Shown here: positions 10,151 through 53,228 of the stretch, one piece after another
Layout of the letters: the number at the start of each line of letters is the position of its first letter
Numbering within the stretch: the stretch's first letter is position 1
Origin: Candidatus Omnitrophota bacterium
Lineage (GTDB): Bacteria > Omnitrophota > Gorgyraeia > Aquiviventales > Aquiviventaceae
Length of the DNA stretch: 63,529 nt
Direction of reading: 5' to 3'
NCBI GenBank assembly: GCA_023247235.1
Contig: JAHFGW010000001.1
Location: forward strand, 64,586-128,114
The notes under the pieces: generated by a model
What the model saw: only the letters and a program-made list of their open reading frames with translations
Database searches by the model: none
What the model was told of the DNA's origin: nothing
Translations under genes and position numbers: made by a program

Positions 10151-10200
10151 AGGAAAGGGATGGTTCTCCAGGAAGGGAAAACTTCGTTTTCCCTTCCTGG
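10151..10200 (+). repeat. AGGAAAGGGATGGTT box followed by a perfect hairpin CCAGGAAGGGAAAAC-TTC-GTTTTCCCTTCCTGG
   Basis: 15-bp perfect stem read from the sequence. A near-identical copy lies at 17594-17640 and a variant palindrome at 17732-17759. Confidence 0.8.
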
Positions 10201-10259
10201 ATTAAGTCAGCGATTGAGATGAGCAGAGATTCCTTTCAGACCGACTGATGGTGCGACAC

Positions 10260-15874: not shown

Positions 15875-16249
15875 GTGCGCGGCTCGGCGCTGGCCTGCGG
15901 CGTCGATGTCGTAGAGTTGGCGCGGCTCGCGCAGGCGATCCGGCGCGGCGGGAACGCCTTCATGCGGCGTATCTTCACGGTGCATGAGACCGCCTACGCT
16001 CGGGCGCGCAAGCGCACGACACTGCAGCACCTGGCGGGGCGCTTCGCCGCGAAAGAAGCCGTCATCAAGGCCCTGGCACAGGTCGACCCGCAGCATGTCC
16101 CTGCCATGAATCAAATCGAGATCCGCAATGACCGTCACGGCCGACCATCGGTGGTGCTCATGGACCGACGCCGCCGGCGGGTCAAGATCCATGTAAGCCT
16201 CTCCCATGTCGATACCGTGGCCGTGGCCAGCGCGATCGTGACGCGATGA
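15875..16249 (+). CDS. acpS: holo-[acyl-carrier-protein] synthase
   Basis: GVDVVEL...FTVHE...RFAAKEAVIKAL...SLSH pattern of 4'-phosphopantetheinyl transferases. I chose an in-frame GTG just after the pdxJ stop; the ORF track starts it at 15785. Confidence 0.8.
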   Translation: MRGSALACGVDVVELARLAQAIRRGGNAFMRRIFTVHETAYARARKRTTLQHLAGRFAAKEAVIKALAQVDPQHVPAMNQIEIRNDRHGRPSVVLMDRRRRRVKIHVSLSHVDTVAVASAIVTR

Positions 16250-16403
16250 TCCCACCACCTGCTACCGGCCGCCGCAGGCGGCCTCGGCCGGCTCGTTACG
16301 GCGAAGCACCGGGACGCCGGCCGTGGCGGTGGCGTATGATGTCTCATAGGTCTCGAGTCCCCGCCTCCCAGTGTCGCCACCGCCAGGAGCAGGTGGGGGA
16401 ATG
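16247..16403 (+). mobile_element. 157-nt terminal-inverted-repeat element, copy A (acpS stop TGA to nnrD start ATG)
   Basis: TGATCCCACCACCTGCT...AGCAGGTGGGGGAATG. Blocks at positions 31-54 and 71-88 are identical to copy C at 43698-43854. ATGA is present at both flanks. Confidence 0.8.
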
Positions 16404-17264
16404 ATCCCTGCCGGCCTGCTGCCGCCTCGTCAACCCGAAGCACACAAGGGGGATGCGGGGCGGGTGCTGATCGTGGCCGGCTCGATGCATTATAGTGGGG
16501 CGGCCGCGCTGTGCGTGCTGGGAGCCTTGCGCGCGGGGGCAGGGCTGGTGACGCTCGCCACGCCCAAGAGTTTGCACGGCCCGATGGTGCAGAAGCTGAC
16601 CGAGGCGATGTGCATCCCGCTGCCGGAGACGCGGGAGGGCAGTGTGAGCATCCAGGCGCTGCCCGAGTTGGCACGCCTGGGCGATCGGGCGGAGGCGGTT
16701 GCGATCGGGCCGGGCCTGTCGCAGGAGGCGCAGACGAAGACGCTCCTGCGGCAGCTGCTGCCCAAGATCGTCAAGCCGCTGGTGGTGGACGCGGACGGGC
16801 TGAATGCCCTGGCCGAAGAGGTTGACCTCCTCAGGCGCCGGACGCTGCCATGCATCCTCACGCCGCATCCGGGCGAGATGGCGCGGCTGATTCGCCAGTC
16901 GGCGGAGGCGGTGCAGTCGGATCGCGAGCGGATCGCCGGAGAGTTTGCAAAGAAATACCAAGTGGTCGTCGTCCTCAAAGGCCACCGCAGCGTTGTGGCG
17001 AATTTCGACGGCACCCTCTACGTCAACGAGACAGGGAACCCGGGGATGGCGTCGGGGGGCTCGGGGGATGTGCTGACAGGCATGATCGTCGGCTTGCTGG
17101 GGCAGCGCCTTTCGCTCTTTGATGCCGCACGCCTGGGCGTCTACCTGCACGGTTTGGCCGGCGACCTGGCTGCTCGCGAGAAGGGCGAGATAGGCTTGAT
17201 TGCGTCAGACGTCGCCGATAGAATACCGCTGGCGATCCGCCAGTATCAGAGCTCGCCGACGTAG
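16401..17264 (+). CDS. nnrD: ADP-dependent NAD(P)H-hydrate dehydratase (YjeF C-terminal/Nnr family)
   Basis: HKGDAGRVLIVAGS and GGSGDVLTGMI motifs. Start taken at the ATG created at the right end of the 157-nt element. Confidence 0.85.
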   Translation: MIPAGLLPPRQPEAHKGDAGRVLIVAGSMHYSGAAALCVLGALRAGAGLVTLATPKSLHGPMVQKLTEAMCIPLPETREGSVSIQALPELARLGDRAEAVAIGPGLSQEAQTKTLLRQLLPKIVKPLVVDADGLNALAEEVDLLRRRTLPCILTPHPGEMARLIRQSAEAVQSDRERIAGEFAKKYQVVVVLKGHRSVVANFDGTLYVNETGNPGMASGGSGDVLTGMIVGLLGQRLSLFDAARLGVYLHGLAGDLAAREKGEIGLIASDVADRIPLAIRQYQSSPT

Positions 17265-17584: not shown

Positions 17585-17640
17585 TTTCCTTTCAGGAAAG
17601 GGATGGTTTCAAGGAAGGGAAAACTTCGTTTTCCCTTCCT
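17585..17640 (+). repeat. small hairpin TTTCCT-TTC-AGGAAA, AGGAAAGGGATGGTT box and perfect hairpin AGGAAGGGAAAAC-TTC-GTTTTCCCTTCCT
   Basis: Second copy of the element at 10151-10200. Confidence 0.8.
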
Positions 17641-17731
17641 GATCGAGCCTACATTCTGTATCGTTCGTTCCTCTTAGGAAAGGGAGACCAGGGAGTCCCG
17701 CGGTTAGGTAGGCCATGGCGGGACGACCGCG

Positions 17732-17759
17732 AGGAGGGAAAACCTAGGTTTTCCCTCCT
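17732..17759 (+). repeat. 28-nt perfect palindrome AGGAGGGAAAACCTAGGTTTTCCCTCCT (variant of the GGAAGGGAAAAC hairpin)
   Basis: Read directly from the sequence. It is preceded at 17676-17697 by an AGGAAAGGGAGACCAGGGAG box that resembles the box in the other two copies. Confidence 0.75.
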
Positions 17760-17792
17760 AGGGAGCCCCCCTAAGAGGACTGCTGGTGCGAC

Positions 17793-35851: not shown

Positions 35852-35922
35852 TAGCGTATAGCGGGTAGCGTTCAGCGTACAGAATCCGTATACGCTAAAC
35901 GCTATACGCTGCACGCTAGACG
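35852..35922 (+). repeat. heptamer-array hairpin H5 (TAGCGTA TAGCGGG TAGCGTT CAGCGTA / loop / ACGCTAA ACGCTAT ACGCTGC ACGCTAG)
   Basis: Four heptamers per arm, with about 23 of 28 positions complementary by hand alignment. It fills the rpsJ|rplC spacer. Confidence 0.8.
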
Positions 35923-38482: not shown

Positions 38483-38570
38483 TGTGTAATGTCCAATGTG
38501 TCGTGTGTAATGGATAAGGTGCGCACGATGCGTGTTTTCCCATTACACAGTACACGTGACACATTACACA
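38483..38570 (+). repeat. heptamer-array hairpin H6 (TGTGTAA TGTCCAA TGTGTCG TGTGTAA TGG / 26-nt loop / CCA TTACACA GTACACG TGACACA TTACACA)
   Basis: Hand pairing gives 26 of 31 positions paired, including one G-U. It fills the rplB|rpsS spacer and is followed by GAGGAG and the ATG. Confidence 0.85.
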
Positions 38571-40525: not shown

Positions 40526-40731
40526 TGGCTCAGAAGCGGCCCAAGGCTCGCGAGCTGCGGACGATTTCCACGGAAGAATTGCGCGACCAAGTCCAGGCGC
40601 TGCGCCAGGAACTCTGGGAAACCCGCCTGAAGGCTCGCAGCGGCGCGGCCACGGCGCCATCTCACGAGATCCGCCAGGCGCGCCGGCAGCTTGCGCGCGT
40701 CCTCACGATCTCACGGGAGCGAACAACATGA
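40525..40731 (+). CDS. rpmC: 50S ribosomal protein L29
   Basis: LRTISTEELRDQVQALRQELWETR pattern, 68 aa. Confidence 0.92.
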   Translation: MAQKRPKARELRTISTEELRDQVQALRQELWETRLKARSGAATAPSHEIRQARRQLARVLTISRERTT

Positions 40732-40778
40732 TCCCACCACCTGTTGCTAGCGGCGCCACACGCGATGAACAACCCATG
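40729..40778 (+). mobile_element. truncated copy B of the 157-nt element (left end only), rpmC stop to rpsQ start
   Basis: TGATCCCACCACCTGTTGC is identical to the first 19 nt of copy C, after which the sequence is unrelated. ATGA is present at both flanks (40728-40731, 40776-40779). Confidence 0.65.
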
Positions 40779-41126
40779 ACGGCACCCCAGGTCCGCGGGA
40801 TCCGCCGGACGCGCATCGGCATTGTCACCAGCGACAAGATGCAGAAAACGCGGGTCGTGCGCGTCGAGCGGCTGTCACGCCATGGGCGCTACCCGCGCAC
40901 GTTGCGTCTGCGGACGAGCTTCAAAGTGCATGATGAAGGCAACGAATCGCATCTCGGAGACTTGGTAGAAATCATGGAAACCCGCCCGCTGTCCAAGGAG
41001 AAGCGCTTTCGCCTTGTGAAAGTGCTCCAGCGTGCGTCCACCGCGCCCCCGGTACCCGGGGAGCCGTCGGAAGCGTCCGCCAGGCCGCCGGAAGACGCTC
41101 CTCCTTCAACGAGCGACGCGGGGTGA
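40776..41126 (+). CDS. rpsQ: 30S ribosomal protein S17 (Pro/Ala/Glu tail)
   Basis: [23 protein letters not shown] block. Internal ATG of ORF 40503..41126. Confidence 0.92.
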
Positions 41127-43133: not shown

Positions 43134-43700
43134 ATGTCTCGTATCGGTCGGTTGCCTGTCCCGGTGCCTCAAGGCGCCACAGTGAAGCTTGACGGCGCGC
43201 GCCTGACGGTCGAAGGGCCGAAGGGCACGCTCGCCGTGACCGTGCCCGGCGTGCTGGCAGTCGAGCTTGGCAGCGAGCAGGTCGTGGTGGCGCGCCGTGA
43301 TGAGGAGCAGCAGACGCGCGCCCTGCATGGATTGTACCGCGCGCTGGTGGCCAACATGGTGCAGGGCACCGTGAACGGGTTTTCAAGGAATTTGGAGATT
43401 GTCGGCGTTGGCTACCGGGCCGAAGTGTCGGGCAAGCGGTTGACGCTGCACGTGGGGTTCTCGCATCCCGTCGTGCTGCAGATCCCCGAAGGGCTGGCGG
43501 TCGAGCTGCCCAAGCCGACGACACTCATCGTCAAGGGCGCCGACAAGCAGCTTGTGGGCCAGTTCGCCGCCACGATTCGGCGCACTGCGCCTCCAGAGCC
43601 GTACAAGGGGAAGGGGATTCGATACGCGAACGAGACGATCCGCCGCAAGGCGGGCAAGGCGGCCACGGGCGCGGCCGCCAAGAGCGGCGGGGGGTCATGA
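43134..43700 (+). CDS. rplF: 50S ribosomal protein L6
   Basis: MSRIGRLPVPVPQGATV start. Internal ATG of ORF 43092..43700. Confidence 0.95.
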   Translation: MSRIGRLPVPVPQGATVKLDGARLTVEGPKGTLAVTVPGVLAVELGSEQVVVARRDEEQQTRALHGLYRALVANMVQGTVNGFSRNLEIVGVGYRAEVSGKRLTLHVGFSHPVVLQIPEGLAVELPKPTTLIVKGADKQLVGQFAATIRRTAPPEPYKGKGIRYANETIRRKAGKAATGAAAKSGGGS

Positions 43701-43854
43701 TCCCACCACCTGTTGCCGGCCGCCAAAGGCGGCCTCGGCCGGCTCGTTACGCCCTGGTACCGCTGCGCCGGCCGTGGCGGTGGCGTCGTATGTCTCAGAT
43801 ATCGTACATCCCCGCATTCAACCCTCGTCACCGCCAGCAACAGGTGGTGGGATG
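43698..43854 (+). mobile_element. 157-nt terminal-inverted-repeat element, copy C (rplF stop TGA to rplR start ATG)
   Basis: TGATCCCACCACCTGTTGC...GCAACAGGTGGTGGGATG. Internal GGCCGCC-AAA-GGCGGCC hairpin and GGCGGTG/CACCGCC pairing. ATGA at both flanks. Confidence 0.85.
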
Positions 43855-44220
43855 AGCCACACGGCGCGCCGCCAGCTCGGCCGACGGGCCCGCCACCGGC
43901 GGATCCGCAAACGAGTCATCGGGATGCCTGATCGGCCAAGAGTGTGCGTGTTCCGCAGCCACAAGCACCTGCAGGCGCAGCTGATCAACGACGTGGAAGC
44001 TAAAACGCTCCTGGGTGGCTCGACGCTGGACAAGCAAGTCCGCCAGGCGGTCAAGGGAGGGTCGCGCACGAGCTTGGCGCAGGCCTTGGGCTCCGCGCTG
44101 GCCCAAGAGGCCGGCAAACTTGGTATCACCCAGGTGGTCTTCGACCGCGGGGGCTATGTGTATCACGGGCGCGTCAAGGCATTCGCCGAGGCGCTGCGCC
44201 AGGGAGGCCTCCAGTTCTGA
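43852..44220 (+). CDS. rplR: 50S ribosomal protein L18
   Basis: [32 protein letters not shown] block. Internal ATG of ORF 43552..44220. Confidence 0.94.
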
Positions 44221-46670: not shown

Positions 46671-47339
46671 GTGCGGCTCGCATTATTGGGCCCGCCCGGC
46701 GCGGGCAAGGGTTCTTTGGCATCGGTATGCGAGGAGCGCCTGGGATTGCGGCACCTCTCCACCGGCAATATTTTCCGGCAGGAGATGGCCCGCGGGAGCG
46801 CGTTGGGACGCCGGGTGCGGCGCTTCGTCACGGCCGGAACGCTCGTGCCGGATTCCCTCGTCGTCCAGGTGATGGTGCAGCGTCTGCGACGGCTGCCCCG
46901 CGCGGCCGGGGTCGTGCTCGACGGCTTCCCCAGGACGGTGGGTCAGGCTCGGGGCCTTCAGGCGGCCATGGGACGTGTCAAACCGCTCGACGGGGTGGTC
47001 TATCTGGAGACTCCTGAGCGGGTGTTAGTCGCCAGGTTGTCCGGGCGGCGGGTGTGCGCGCAATGCGGCGCCAACTTCCACCTCCGGACCATGCGCCCAC
47101 GGCGCGCCGGCCGGTGCGACCGATGCGGGGGACCGCTCACCGTGCGCAACGACGACCGGCCGGACACGATTCGGCGCCGCCTGGCGATTGACCGGGCGAA
47201 AGCGCAACCGCTGCTTCGCTATTACGAGCGGCACGGGATGTTGCACCGCATCAACGGGGCCGGACGCTTGGGCACTGTCTTCGACCGGCTCGTACGACTG
47301 TGCCGCCGCGAGGGATGGCTCAAGGGCTCCCGGCGATGA
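46671..47339 (+). CDS. adk: adenylate kinase (zinc-lid form)
   Basis: GPPGAGKGS P-loop, CAQCG...CDRCGG lid, GTG start. Confidence 0.93.
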   Translation: MRLALLGPPGAGKGSLASVCEERLGLRHLSTGNIFRQEMARGSALGRRVRRFVTAGTLVPDSLVVQVMVQRLRRLPRAAGVVLDGFPRTVGQARGLQAAMGRVKPLDGVVYLETPERVLVARLSGRRVCAQCGANFHLRTMRPRRAGRCDRCGGPLTVRNDDRPDTIRRRLAIDRAKAQPLLRYYERHGMLHRINGAGRLGTVFDRLVRLCRREGWLKGSRR

Positions 47340-47493
47340 TCCCACCACCTGCCGCAGGCCGCCATCGGCGGCCGGGCCGCGCTGGACGCGCACCCAAGTG
47401 TGCCTGCGGCCCTGGCGGTGCGCGCCACGGATCATCGGATCGATTGAGCTGGGCCTTGAAGGCAAGGCACCGCCGGCGGCAGGTGGTGGGATG
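47337..47493 (+). mobile_element. 157-nt terminal-inverted-repeat element, copy D (adk stop TGA to map start ATG)
   Basis: TGATCCCACCACCTGCCGC...GCGGCAGGTGGTGGGATG. It has the same length and the same conserved sub-stems as copies A and C, but a diverged interior. Confidence 0.85.
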
Positions 47494-48261
47494 ATCGAGC
47501 TCAAAAGCCGTCAAGAGATCGAGACCATGGCGCAAGCCGGCGCGGTCGTGGCGGCGCTTCTTGAGTATCTGGCCGATCTGACACGGCCGGGCATCACCAC
47601 GAAAGCGCTGGATGAGGAAGCCCGCGCGTTTTTGCGGGCCAAGAAGGCCAAGCCGGCGTTCCTTGGCTACCGCGGGTTTCCCGCGTGCATCTGCGTGTCC
47701 GTGAACGAGGAAGTCGTGCATGGAATTCCCGGCGAGCGCGAGATCCGGCACGGAGACTTAGTGAGCCTTGACGCCGGCGCGGTCGTGGATGGGTTTTACG
47801 CCGACGCAGCCCGAACAGTTGCGGTTGGCGTCGTCTCGCCGGAAGCCCAACGGCTGCTCGAGACCGCTGAGCGGGCGCTGGCCGAGGGGATCCAGCAAGC
47901 GGTCGTGGGACGGCGCGTGAACGACATTGCGCATGCCGTGCAGCGCCTGGTCGAGGCGGAGGGGTTCAGCGTCGTTCGGGAGTTCGTGGGGCATGGGATC
48001 GGCCGCGCGATGCACGAGGAGCCTCCGGTGCCCAACTTCGGTCCCCCGAACATCGGGCCGCGCCTGAAGGCCGGCATGGTGCTGGCGATCGAGCCGATGG
48101 TGACGGCTGGGCGGCCGGACGTTGAGATCCTCGCGGATGGGTGGACGGCGGTCACCAAGGATCACTCGCTGGCAGCGCACGCGGAGGACACGGTGGCCGT
48201 CACGGACCACGGCGCGCGCATCCTGACGAGGGTGCTGGATGCCCAAAGAAGAGGCGATTGA
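47491..48261 (+). CDS. map: methionine aminopeptidase type I
   Basis: [13 protein letters not shown] start, metal ligands (D..D..H..E..E pattern, FVGHGIG). Internal ATG of ORF 47188..48261. Confidence 0.94.
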
Positions 48262-48572: not shown

Positions 48573-48662
48573 TGTGTAATGTGTAACGTGTAATGCAAGA
48601 GCCGTAATCCAGGTGTTCACGAACGGCAGTTCCATTACACATGACACCTTACACATTACACA
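48573..48662 (+). repeat. heptamer-array hairpin H8 (TGTGTAA TGTGTAA CGTGTAA / 38-nt loop / TTACACA TGACACC TTACACA TTACACA)
   Basis: Read directly from the sequence. It fills the rpmJ|rpsM spacer and is followed by GAGGAG and the ATG. Confidence 0.85.
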
Positions 48663-49625: not shown

Positions 49626-49700
49626 TCAGCGGATAGCGTTGAGCGTTCAGCGTATAGGAGGGCCCAAACTATACGCTCTACGCTCTACGCTCTACGCTAA
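49626..49700 (+). repeat. heptamer-array hairpin H9 (TCAGCGG ATAGCGT TGAGCGT TCAGCGT ATAG / loop / CTATACG CTCTACG x3 CTAA)
   Basis: Same AGCGT/ACGCT unit family as H5. It lies in the rpsK|rpsD spacer. Confidence 0.85.
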
Positions 49701-51925: not shown

Positions 51926-53100
51926 CCGCGCTCACCCTGCCTGAACGCCTTCGCGACGTCGAAGGCTCACCCACGCTTGCCCTGGCCGCCAAGGCCAAGG
52001 CGCTGGCCAACGCCGGCAAGCCGGTCTTGGATTTTACGGCCGGCGAGCCGGATTTTCCGACGCCGGATCCCGTCAAGCGTGCAGGCATCCGGGCGATCGA
52101 GTCGAATCAGACCCGCTATACCCCGGTCGCAGGATTACCCGAGCTGCGGGCCGCCGTCGCCCAGCAGGTCAACCGGACCCGGCACACGAACTATTCCGCT
52201 GCCCACGTGCTGGTGAGCTGCGGCGCCAAGCACGCGCTCTTTAACGTCTTCCAGGCGCTGTGCCAACCGGGCGACGAAGTCATCCTGCTCAGCCCGTATT
52301 GGGTCAGCTTTCCGGCGCTGGTCCGTTTGGCAGGCGCCAAGCCGGTGATTGTGCCGACACAGGAGGCGGACGGCTTCCAGCCGGATCTTGCGGCGATCCG
52401 CAACGCGATATCCGGCGCGACCAAAGCGCTCGTCATCAACAGCCCGAGCAACCCGACCGGCGCCGTCGTCTCCAAGGCTCGACTGGAGGCGTTGGCCGCC
52501 CTGGCGCTGGAGCGGCACCTGGTCGTGATCAGCGATGAGATTTACGACGAACTCGTCTACCCGCCGGCCGCCCATCGCTCTATCACGCAACTCAACCCGC
52601 AGATGGCGGATTGCACCGTGCTCATCGGCGGGGTCTCCAAGACCTACAGCATGACCGGGTGGCGGATTGGGTGGGCCGTCGGCCCGGAACCGCTCGTCGA
52701 GGCCATGACGACGCTGCAGAGCCATTCGACGTCGAATCCCACGTCCATCAGCCAGCATGCGGCCTTGGCCGCGCTGACCGGCGAGCAATCCTCTGTTGCG
52801 GCGATGCGAAAGGAATTCCTGGCTCGCCGTGACCGGCTGGTCCAGGGCCTGGCTGCGCTCCCCGGGTTGCGTGTCAAGACACCCGAGGGAGCGTTCTATG
52901 CGTGGTGCAATGTCCGTGGCCTGGGGCAGTCGGCCCAGGCCACCGCGCAACAGTGGTTGGACGAGGCGCTCGTGGCGACGGTCCCCGGCGAAGGATTCGG
53001 GTCCTCCGAGCACATCCGCTTCAGCTTTGCGACGAGCCTGCAGACGATTGACGACGCGTTGCGGCGGCTCGACAGCTGGTGCCGCAAACGGAGTTCATAG
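51889..53100 (+). CDS. aspartate/aromatic aminotransferase, class I PLP enzyme
   Basis: DFTAGEPDFPTP, NSPSNPTG and SKTYSMTGWRIGW (PLP lysine) motifs. The start is GTG 51889 or TTG 51922. Confidence 0.85.
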   Translation: MDAQAIASTRALTALTLPERLRDVEGSPTLALAAKAKALANAGKPVLDFTAGEPDFPTPDPVKRAGIRAIESNQTRYTPVAGLPELRAAVAQQVNRTRHTNYSAAHVLVSCGAKHALFNVFQALCQPGDEVILLSPYWVSFPALVRLAGAKPVIVPTQEADGFQPDLAAIRNAISGATKALVINSPSNPTGAVVSKARLEALAALALERHLVVISDEIYDELVYPPAAHRSITQLNPQMADCTVLIGGVSKTYSMTGWRIGWAVGPEPLVEAMTTLQSHSTSNPTSISQHAALAALTGEQSSVAAMRKEFLARRDRLVQGLAALPGLRVKTPEGAFYAWCNVRGLGQSAQATAQQWLDEALVATVPGEGFGSSEHIRFSFATSLQTIDDALRRLDSWCRKRSS

Positions 53101-53228
53101 TTCATAGTTCATAGTTCATAGTTCGTAGTTCGGTGTTCGGTGCGGATGAGCTTCAGACTGATCTCGCTCGGAGATACTCTAGCATTGCCCTTACTATGAA
53201 CTACGAACAATGAACACCGAACGAATGA
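53092..53228 (+). repeat. heptamer-array hairpin H10 (AGTTCAT x4, AGTTCGT, AGTTCGG, TGTTCGG / 48-nt loop / CTATGAA CTACGAA CAATGAA CACCGAA CGAATGA)
   Basis: Seven left and five right heptamers. The array starts inside the last codons of the aminotransferase and ends 1 nt before the icd ATG. Confidence 0.85.

Follow-up and report, generated by a model that had tools for sequence, protein, structure and literature searches.

Small inverted-repeat elements at ATGA stop/start overlaps of Omnitrophota operons and their putative bridge cistron

Stop/start overlaps between neighbouring genes are usually seen as fragile points of operons, at which insertions are expected to be strongly counter-selected. 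Overlaps of the types ATGA and TGATG are common in prokaryotic genomes and, according to an earlier report (PMC6728339), are linked to translational coupling via termination-reinitiation. At one such point, the junction of the ribosomal-protein genes rplF (L6) and rplR (L18) of a Candidatus Omnitrophota bacterium, a 152-nt inverted-repeat element lies between the stop codon of the one gene and the start codon of the other. The junction is part of a 63,529-nt stretch of DNA (assembly GCA_023247235.1, contig JAHFGW010000001.1, positions 64,586 to 128,114), here termed the window, to whose first nucleotide all coordinates refer unless another locus is named. This raises the question of how a ribosomal-protein operon accommodates such an insert. 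The element represents a previously undescribed MITE (miniature inverted-repeat transposable element) family, and a readable frame that bridges it from one ATGA to the next probably lets it sit in essential operons without breaking them.

An inverted-repeat transposon at stop/start overlaps

The 15-mer TGATCCCACCACCTG has four exact occurrences in the window (at 16247, 40729, 43698 and 47337), and its reverse complement follows, with one to three mismatches, about 143 nt downstream at three of the four sites (16390-16404, 43841-43855 and 47480-47494). The window contains three full copies of the element, each of 152 nt (TCCC to GGGA), and one remnant, all on the forward strand (+). Every full copy is bordered by TGA on each side and has ATGA at its left and right flank, with 157 nt from the T of the upstream stop to the G of the downstream start; the coordinates and sequences given in a preliminary description of the window were all found to be correct by direct reading. 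In the focal copy (copy 2; 43701..43852, from direct reading and folding), the left TGA (43698..43700) is the stop codon of rplF and forms, together with A43697, the ATGA that opens a bridge open reading frame (ORF). The right TGA (43853..43855) is the stop codon of this ORF, while A43852, the last base of the element, and the adjoining TG make up the ATG of rplR. Insertion thus left the left TGA as the upstream stop, and the terminal A plus the right TG rebuilt the downstream ATG, overlapping the new TGA, as the preliminary description had proposed. The window offers 1851 TGA/TCA trinucleotides versus only about a dozen ATGA gene junctions, and because all three full copies and the remnant lie on the latter, landing there by chance is ruled out. 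The eight uninterrupted ATGA junctions listed previously for the window all exist, with long ORFs on both sides.

Genomes (one per species) were scanned with a pattern of the left arm plus the stem of the adjoining hairpin P2, and metagenomes with the two 12-nt arms only, both perfect, flanks and interior being left unspecified. With the genome scan, relatives came to light on four contigs of a metagenome-assembled genome (MAG) carrying the label Planctomycetales, as well as in two Omnitrophota MAGs; most of its 39 matches were chance or coding matches, and real elements were confined to these MAGs. Three rejected loci (L012, L026 and L033) match on the reverse strand of a coding sequence that apparently ends in ...RGGRNQVVG and a stop, which we take to resemble the C-terminus of a diguanylate cyclase (GGDEF type); its likeness to the QVVG end of the bridge ORF is a coincidence. 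The metagenome scan yielded at least 120 loci. The family is therefore large and occurs in genomes labelled Omnitrophota and Planctomycetales. Among named relatives, those closest to the window's L18 and NnrD are proteins of Omnitrophica/Omnitrophota. Across all fetched DNA, 144 usable arm pairs were obtained, and 118 unique copies were analysed (117 from the pattern search plus window copy 1, the right arm of which is diverged), 102 of them in ATGA context and 16 elsewhere. Arms of the form AGGTGGTGCGGA or AGGTGGTCGGGA mark a sister subfamily.

Identical 3-bp flanks were found in 134 of the 144 arm pairs (TGA 64, TCA 63, CCA 3, TGG 2, TTA 1, TAA 1). As these matching flanks vary in sequence, they reflect staggered-cut insertion and hence true target-site duplication. 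The terminal inverted repeats comprise 16 bp (12 invariant and 4 covarying), the elements are small (86-207 nt) and devoid of a transposase gene, their sole ORF in the window copies having 52 codons and no Pfam match, and copies are dispersed, with empty sites at orthologous loci. The element is thus a non-autonomous, MITE-like inverted-repeat transposon, in keeping with the preliminary description, which had also suggested that it targets and duplicates ATGA or TGA. Duplication of TGA was borne out, whereas the target is not strictly ATGA; it is T(G/C)A in a weak symmetric GA/TSA/TC context, and TGATG junctions are used as well.

A single ATGA, the empty site expected beforehand, was found in relatives at all three junctions. 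A relative with 63% identical L18 (L162) reads GGCGGATGAGCCACACGG at L6/L18, and GACCGCATGATCGAACTCAAAAC and GACCGCATGATCGAACTC at adk/map; the acpS/nnrD junction is empty in two loci of a relative with 78% identical NnrD (L165 and L166), the former reading GATCCGATGACGATCCCC. When reconstructed empty sites were compared by blastn with the fetched loci, hits other than L162 were merely tandem-array artefacts. The beginning of nnrD in the window, ATGATCCC, was considered as a decayed arm and dismissed, the L165 orthologue having the same N-terminus (M-T-I-P-A-G-L-L) at an empty site. Near-identical copies (91-99%) occupy different sites of one contig, both orientations relative to TGA occur, and tandem insertions are common. 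In Omnitrophica WOR_2 67_20 (L163 5858-6004, L164 833-979), a different, 143-nt member resides in the same L6/L18 ATGA as the window's 152-nt copy, representing either an independent insertion at a hot spot or an old insertion with replaced interior.

Several arrangements of multiple copies were also observed. In tandem arrays (L059 1347-1614; L084 689-973; L005 63-342; L006 5599-5884; and many upstream flanks), units share a single TGA and each junction is an ATGA. Nested or compound copies occur (L108 1748-1954; L137 4182-4312; L085 1773-1916; L091 2011-2198), one of them a small member with an apparent TCG duplication within the P2 loop of a 126-nt element. L091 also contains a minimal, hairpin-only unit of about 41 nt (arm, short loop, arm).

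The remaining window copies conform to the focal one. Copy 1 (16250..16401) lies at the acpS/nnrD junction, with TGA duplications at 16247-16249 and 16402-16404, a slightly diverged right arm (CAGGTGGGGGAA) and a bridge ORF at 16246-16404. Copy 3 (47340..47491) lies at the adk/map junction, with TGA duplications at 47337-47339 and 47492-47494 and a bridge ORF at 47336-47494; its interior differs from those of the other window copies by compensated indels and compensatory stem changes. In the remnant at the rpmC/rpsQ junction (40728..40779), an ATGA and an intact left arm with TTGC extension are followed by some 32 nt of different sequence and then a second ATGA; a search for a matching right arm found none. 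The two ATGAs are 48 nt apart, so that the first ATG shares its frame with that of rpsQ at 40776, and S17 may either have a 16-residue N-terminal extension (MIPPPVASGATRDEQP) or use either start. The word GAACAAC precedes both remnant ATGAs (GAACAACATGA upstream, GAACAACCCATGA downstream), hinting at a microhomology deletion. Pfam identified the flanking genes as L6/L18, ADK/Peptidase_M24 (adenylate kinase and methionine aminopeptidase) and L29/S17, and as ACPS/Carb_kinase on contigs orthologous to the acpS/nnrD junction. An assembly of the same organism from another sample (L160 830-1010) differs from window positions 43678-43860 by one substitution in the P2 stem (GGCGGCC to GGGGGCC), which breaks a pair and shows that the focal copy is evolving in situ.

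The bridge reading frame

For counts of gene context, each copy was oriented by its own TGA. Directly before the left TGA, 101 of 117 unique copies carry an A. In 98 of 109 cases (16% in control frames) an ORF of 50 codons or more starts at the downstream ATG, which is composed of the last A of the element and the duplicated TG; in 78 of 113 (28% in controls) an ORF of this minimum length ends at the upstream TGA, most of the rest being units of tandem arrays. A minority of copies resides at CTGA...TGATG sites, i.e. TGATG overlaps, where insertion again restores stop and start. On the 3' side the GA/TSA/TC preference amounts to T in 38%, which is far too weak to account for A in 86% on the 5' side, and therefore retention, not targeting alone, favours ATGA. 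In these G+C-rich, gene-dense genomes, retained copies are overwhelmingly located at ATGA stop/start overlaps, including those of ribosomal-protein and other core operons.

What had escaped the preliminary description is an ORF bridging each full copy. All three full window copies carry an uninterrupted frame of 52 codons from the upstream to the downstream ATGA; that of copy 2 (43697..43855) encodes MIPPPVAG...QQQVVG before its stop and overlaps as ATGA with the rplF stop as well as the rplR start. None of the three 52-residue peptides matched a Pfam family. The element may by its sequence be regarded as a self-contained mini-cistron with an ATGA overlap at each end. The arms are free of stops in the bridging frame (ATG-A/TC-CCA-CCA-CCT-G and CAG-GTG-GTG-GGA/TGA, the slash marking the end of the element), and the length of 3n+2 is exactly the one that places the right-hand TGA in frame with the left-hand ATG. 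Of the 144 arm pairs, 114 fall into this length class, a series of 20 or more lengths reaching from 86 up to 188 nt.

Both properties depend on context. Among unique copies, the length is 3n+2 in 89 of the 102 with ATGA context and in 7 of the 16 without it (Fisher p = 2.8e-4). Stops are absent from the bridge frame in 96 of the 102, versus 35-48 for each of the remaining five frames; in the 16 others the bridge frame is open in 6, similar to control frames. With shuffled interiors, 38% of trials gave an open frame. When each sequence cluster is counted once, 59 of the 66 keep the frame and lack stops. The ATGA-context copies include seven of length 3n, five of which continue in frame into the downstream ORF, and among the 96 copies of length 3n+2 the frame corresponding to opposite insertion is open in just 43. 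These statistics point to a filter acting on the inserted copy and not to a property of the sequence family. As the interiors are hypervariable, occur in either orientation and would encode unrelated peptides, selection appears to act on readability and not on the peptide. In tandem units preceded by another element the bridge ORF was observed to be open in 20 of 22 cases, resulting in chains of mini-cistrons.

Fold of the element and competing explanations

The minimum free energy (MFE) structure of the focal copy is a four-way junction of -88 to -95 kcal/mol. Its terminal helix P1 pairs 43701..43716, i.e. the 12 invariant nucleotides TCCCACCACCTG plus four variable ones covarying with the other end, with 43837..43852 (GCAACAGGTGGTGGGA), a strand that contains the Shine-Dalgarno (SD)-like AGGUGGUGG and the A of the rplR start codon. 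Adjacent to it follow P2 (43718..43734), a short G+C hairpin with triloop (GGCCGCC-AAA-GGCGGCC) that marks the polarity of the element, the hairpin P3 (43736..43774), the sequence of which varies among copies, and the stem P4 (43775..43836; GGCGGTGGCG...CGTCACCGCC) with a variable distal part. The three window copies fold much more stably than shuffled sequences, with z = -5.25 (focal copy), -2.99 and -7.55.

Across the 118 copies, MFE folds contain P1 in 112 and the four-way junction in 84. Of the 16 bp of P1, the first 12 are dictated by the pattern used for searching; at positions 13-16, which vary in sequence, 92-111 of 118 copies retain Watson-Crick complementarity, compared to only 8 at position 17. 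P2 is a G+C hairpin of 7-8 bp with triloop beside one arm, its GCC/GGC top being conserved while pairs 4-8 covary with several pair types. The covarying pairs of P1 and P2 reveal selection for pairing. Interiors are far less uniform (79 blastn clusters among 118 copies; element lengths 86-207 nt). The duplex of AGGUGGUGG in the right arm with the canonical anti-SD amounts to -10.7 kcal/mol and ranks in the top 1.5% of window 12-mers, and the predicted fold pairs both this motif and the downstream AUG. No asymmetry between sense and antisense folds was detected, G-U and A-C mismatches at P1 positions 13-16 numbering 12 each and antisense folds being slightly more stable; for this reason the fold is not claimed to be an RNA feature. 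P2 was located beside the downstream arm in 64 copies and beside the upstream arm in 21, all three window copies belonging to the minority type; this bias may arise from many lineages being stop-free in only one orientation.

The explanation we consider likely as a whole is that of a transposon serving as its own bridge cistron. A ribosome terminating on the upstream gene would reinitiate at the first ATGA and translate across the element, thereby unwinding a four-way-junction fold of about -90 kcal/mol that hides the downstream AUG and the SD-like AGGUGGUGG. It would terminate at the second ATGA and then reinitiate on the downstream gene, so that translational coupling would be relayed and not broken. 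Copies or lineages that lose the frame or gain a stop would be removed, leaving the quantisation of lengths on 3n+2 and the one open sense frame, which is the pattern observed.

In a shunt-like route based on the helix melting that the preliminary description had envisaged, a ribosome at the left UGA would unwind the 16-bp terminal helix and free the SD-like right arm and the AUG, where the same or another ribosome would start, the interior remaining undecoded. In its favour, stop and start both lie at the base of one helix, predicted in nearly all copies, and this helix buries the A of the downstream AUG as well as the SD-like motif. Melting of the helix predicts no constraint modulo 3 or on stops, however, and cannot explain why 89 of the 102 ATGA-context copies are 3n+2 and 96 have a stop-free bridge frame. 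As the length bias and the single open frame are not predicted in this way, a translated bridge cistron is favoured, and melting as the sole route is unlikely. Copies at TGATG junctions lacking the left ATG have unconstrained lengths, implying that some non-relay route must work there, and helix melting may contribute alongside the relay. It is similarly doubtful that the insert is a domesticated cis-regulatory RNA, either with the fold as an RNase processing or stability element or with the invariant N-terminal Met-Ile-Pro-Pro-Pro of the bridge ORF as an EF-P-dependent stall tuning downstream translation. The very stable fold, its conserved architecture and covarying stems, an arm always encoding PPP directly after the start, and the presence in ribosomal-protein and other core operons would suit such a role. 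The PPP is, however, automatic from the arm sequence, both orientations occur, and neither pair types (G-U vs A-C) nor stability are biased towards the sense strand; furthermore, close relatives differ in whether a copy is present, and one and the same site is occupied by different members, which is the behaviour of a selfish element and not of a conserved regulator.

If the family were instead composed of neutral MITEs, the 3n+2 lengths and the open frame would be inherited from few master copies, and the location at junctions would reflect target preference plus lethality elsewhere. The copies are indeed related, the sample is limited in number and to perfect arms, and the weak GA/TSA/TC preference exists. 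Yet the at least 20 lengths on the 3n+2 series demand many independent frame-keeping indels, the sequence clusters agree, neither bias is seen in the family's 16 copies outside ATGA context, and only the sense frame is open, the opposite-orientation frame (43 of 96) being near the level of shuffled interiors; this makes the neutral account very improbable. Hardly credible is a genuine family of small-protein genes (about 30-60 amino acids, MIPPP...QVVG) with palindromic ends by chance: its ORFs are open and their ATG starts overlap upstream stops, but target-site duplications, empty sites, hypervariable interiors used in both orientations with unrelated peptides, compensated frameshifting indels between window copies, the lack of a Pfam match and the absence of visible conservation at the amino-acid level all contradict it.

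Several observations weigh against the bridge cistron. The predicted translation of the bridge ORF derives from sequence statistics, and in about 8% of the ATGA-context copies (those left of the 102 after deduction of 89 open copies in frame and 5 open fusions) no open frame leads to the downstream start. Target preference accounts for part of the excess of A before TGA, and the fold may serve transposition at the DNA level and not a function in mRNA. The metagenome sample is limited to 120 loci and to copies with both arms perfect, and the copies are not phylogenetically independent, although counts at the cluster level agree nonetheless. Finally, no autonomous transposase or insertion sequence (IS) with these termini was detected in the about 1 Mb of fetched loci, searched for orphan arms as well as for arm pairs (up to 2 mismatches allowed) at distances of 260-4000 nt; all long-spaced arm pairs proved to be neighbouring MITEs and were rejected as autonomous IS.

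A bolder version of the bridge cistron, which we hold tentatively and at slightly less than even confidence, is that the termini evolved as a portable translational-coupling cassette (start, stop, SD-like motif and stop-free arm), with which the element colonises ATGA overlaps of essential coupled operons, those for ribosomal proteins included, as a throw-away bridge cistron. With its start buried in the fold, the downstream gene would then obligatorily depend for expression on ribosomes that read through a selfish element, and Met-Ile-Pro-Pro-Pro may add a dependence on EF-P.

Relation to known elements and implications

Searches of RNA-family, plasmid and viral databases returned no relative of the element. 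In the window, only tRNAs passed the gathering thresholds of Rfam, the best sub-threshold hit on the element being VA RNA (18.7 bits vs 62, E = 0.61); blastn of the element against PLSDB plasmids and the arm-pair pattern against viral contigs of IMG/VR gave no match. The literature searched (arm sequences; MITE and translational coupling; repeats of Planctomycetes or Omnitrophota; ATGA with repeat and small ORF) contained primer coincidences and the analogy discussed next, but not the family, in agreement with the earlier statement that the element was not recognised as a described one.

Mycobacterial interspersed repetitive units (MIRUs) consist of units of about 46-101 bp in direct tandem repetition and are not known to end in inverted repeats or to generate a defined target-site duplication. 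In the present element, by contrast, the inverted termini measure 16 bp, 3 bp are duplicated, the predicted fold is a four-way junction, copies occur in both orientations and the hosts belong to the Planctomycetes-Verrucomicrobia-Chlamydiae (PVC) group; it has no sequence relationship to MIRUs, and its tandem arrays consist of complete inverted-repeat units sharing TGA. Common to both are a short, apparently mobile repeat at gene starts in operons, a small ORF that overlaps with the stop of one neighbouring gene and the start of the other, and the functional logic proposed here. As summarised in a 2025 review (Supply et al. 1997, via PMC12548453), MIRUs are apparently mobile, insert at start codons and possess an internal ORF coupled with -4 spacing, an insertion there interpreted as minimally affecting expression. 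The element is not a MIRU; by analogy, MIRUs would be its closest functional counterpart.

With bacterial MITEs such as Correia/NEMIS, ERIC/IRU, RUP and MITEAba12 (PMC10969869, PMC3184786), the element shares small size, lack of a transposase gene, inverted termini, target duplication and high copy number, as well as a mostly intergenic location, stable hairpins and, probably, co-transcription; it differs in termini, TSA duplication and host phyla. In the MITE literature searched, no element is mentioned that has stop/start overlaps as its target, restores both codons or shows length quantisation preserving a bridging frame. Rickettsia palindromic elements (RPEs) and intragenic ERIC/RU (PMC10969869; PMC2759123) are likewise palindromic, mobile and compatible with translation by virtue of an open frame. 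RPEs, however, lie within genes and are read in frame with them, so that the host protein gains a conserved peptide (PMC10969869), whereas the insert here (element plus 3 bp) is 3n+2 and not 3n, forms its own cistron via two ATGA overlaps and encodes no conserved peptide. REP/BIME (mobilised by RAYT) and the IS200/IS605-derived PATE are short (20-40 nt) palindromes or subterminal hairpins, without target duplication and beside a fixed tetra- or pentanucleotide; assignment to either was rejected on account of the true variable 3-bp duplication, the size of 86-207 nt and the terminal, not subterminal, repeats. Sites of the attC type are not known to have target-site duplications, lie 3' of cassette ORFs in integrons and are recombined by IntI. 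They resemble the element in conserved ends and highly variable interior, structure and length class being conserved rather than sequence, but the element lies between core housekeeping genes and carries the duplicated TGA. Some IS5-family subgroups and PIF/Harbinger-type DDE transposons generate 3-bp TNA duplications and have short terminal inverted repeats. The T-N-A duplication of the element recalls these groups, as a lead only; no transposase gene with TCCCACCACCTG termini was found in the fetched loci.

Other intergenic inverted repeats of the window (38483-38570, 48573-48662, 35853-35910, 49628-49698, 53089-53222, 10167-10201 and 17599-17772) are composed of short, A+T-richer tandem words, namely TGTGTAATG, AGCGTATAGCG, GTTCATAG and, near tRNA genes, AGGGAAAAC...GTTTTCCCT. 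These repeats have no relation to the element and could be terminators or belong to a further family. The S8/L6 and adk/map spacers of Omnitrophica WOR_2 67_20 (L163) contain words of the type CGCGGATT/ACGGATT, which may be a comparable word-built repeat.

The length quantisation on 3n+2 together with one open frame of six, in the absence of selection on the peptide, would represent a rare clean signature of selection for translatability alone. The copies offer a natural setting in which to test termination-reinitiation over 90-190 nt of highly stable structure, and a ready-made design for synthetic coupling cassettes. For annotation they are a warning, as gaps of 100-200 nt in operons of Omnitrophota and Planctomycetes may be translated mini-cistrons. 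The family further suggests that a MIRU-like logic arose independently in an unrelated mobile element and phylum, in which a transposon appears to be nearly harmless at stop/start overlaps by means of its own start, stop and open frame.

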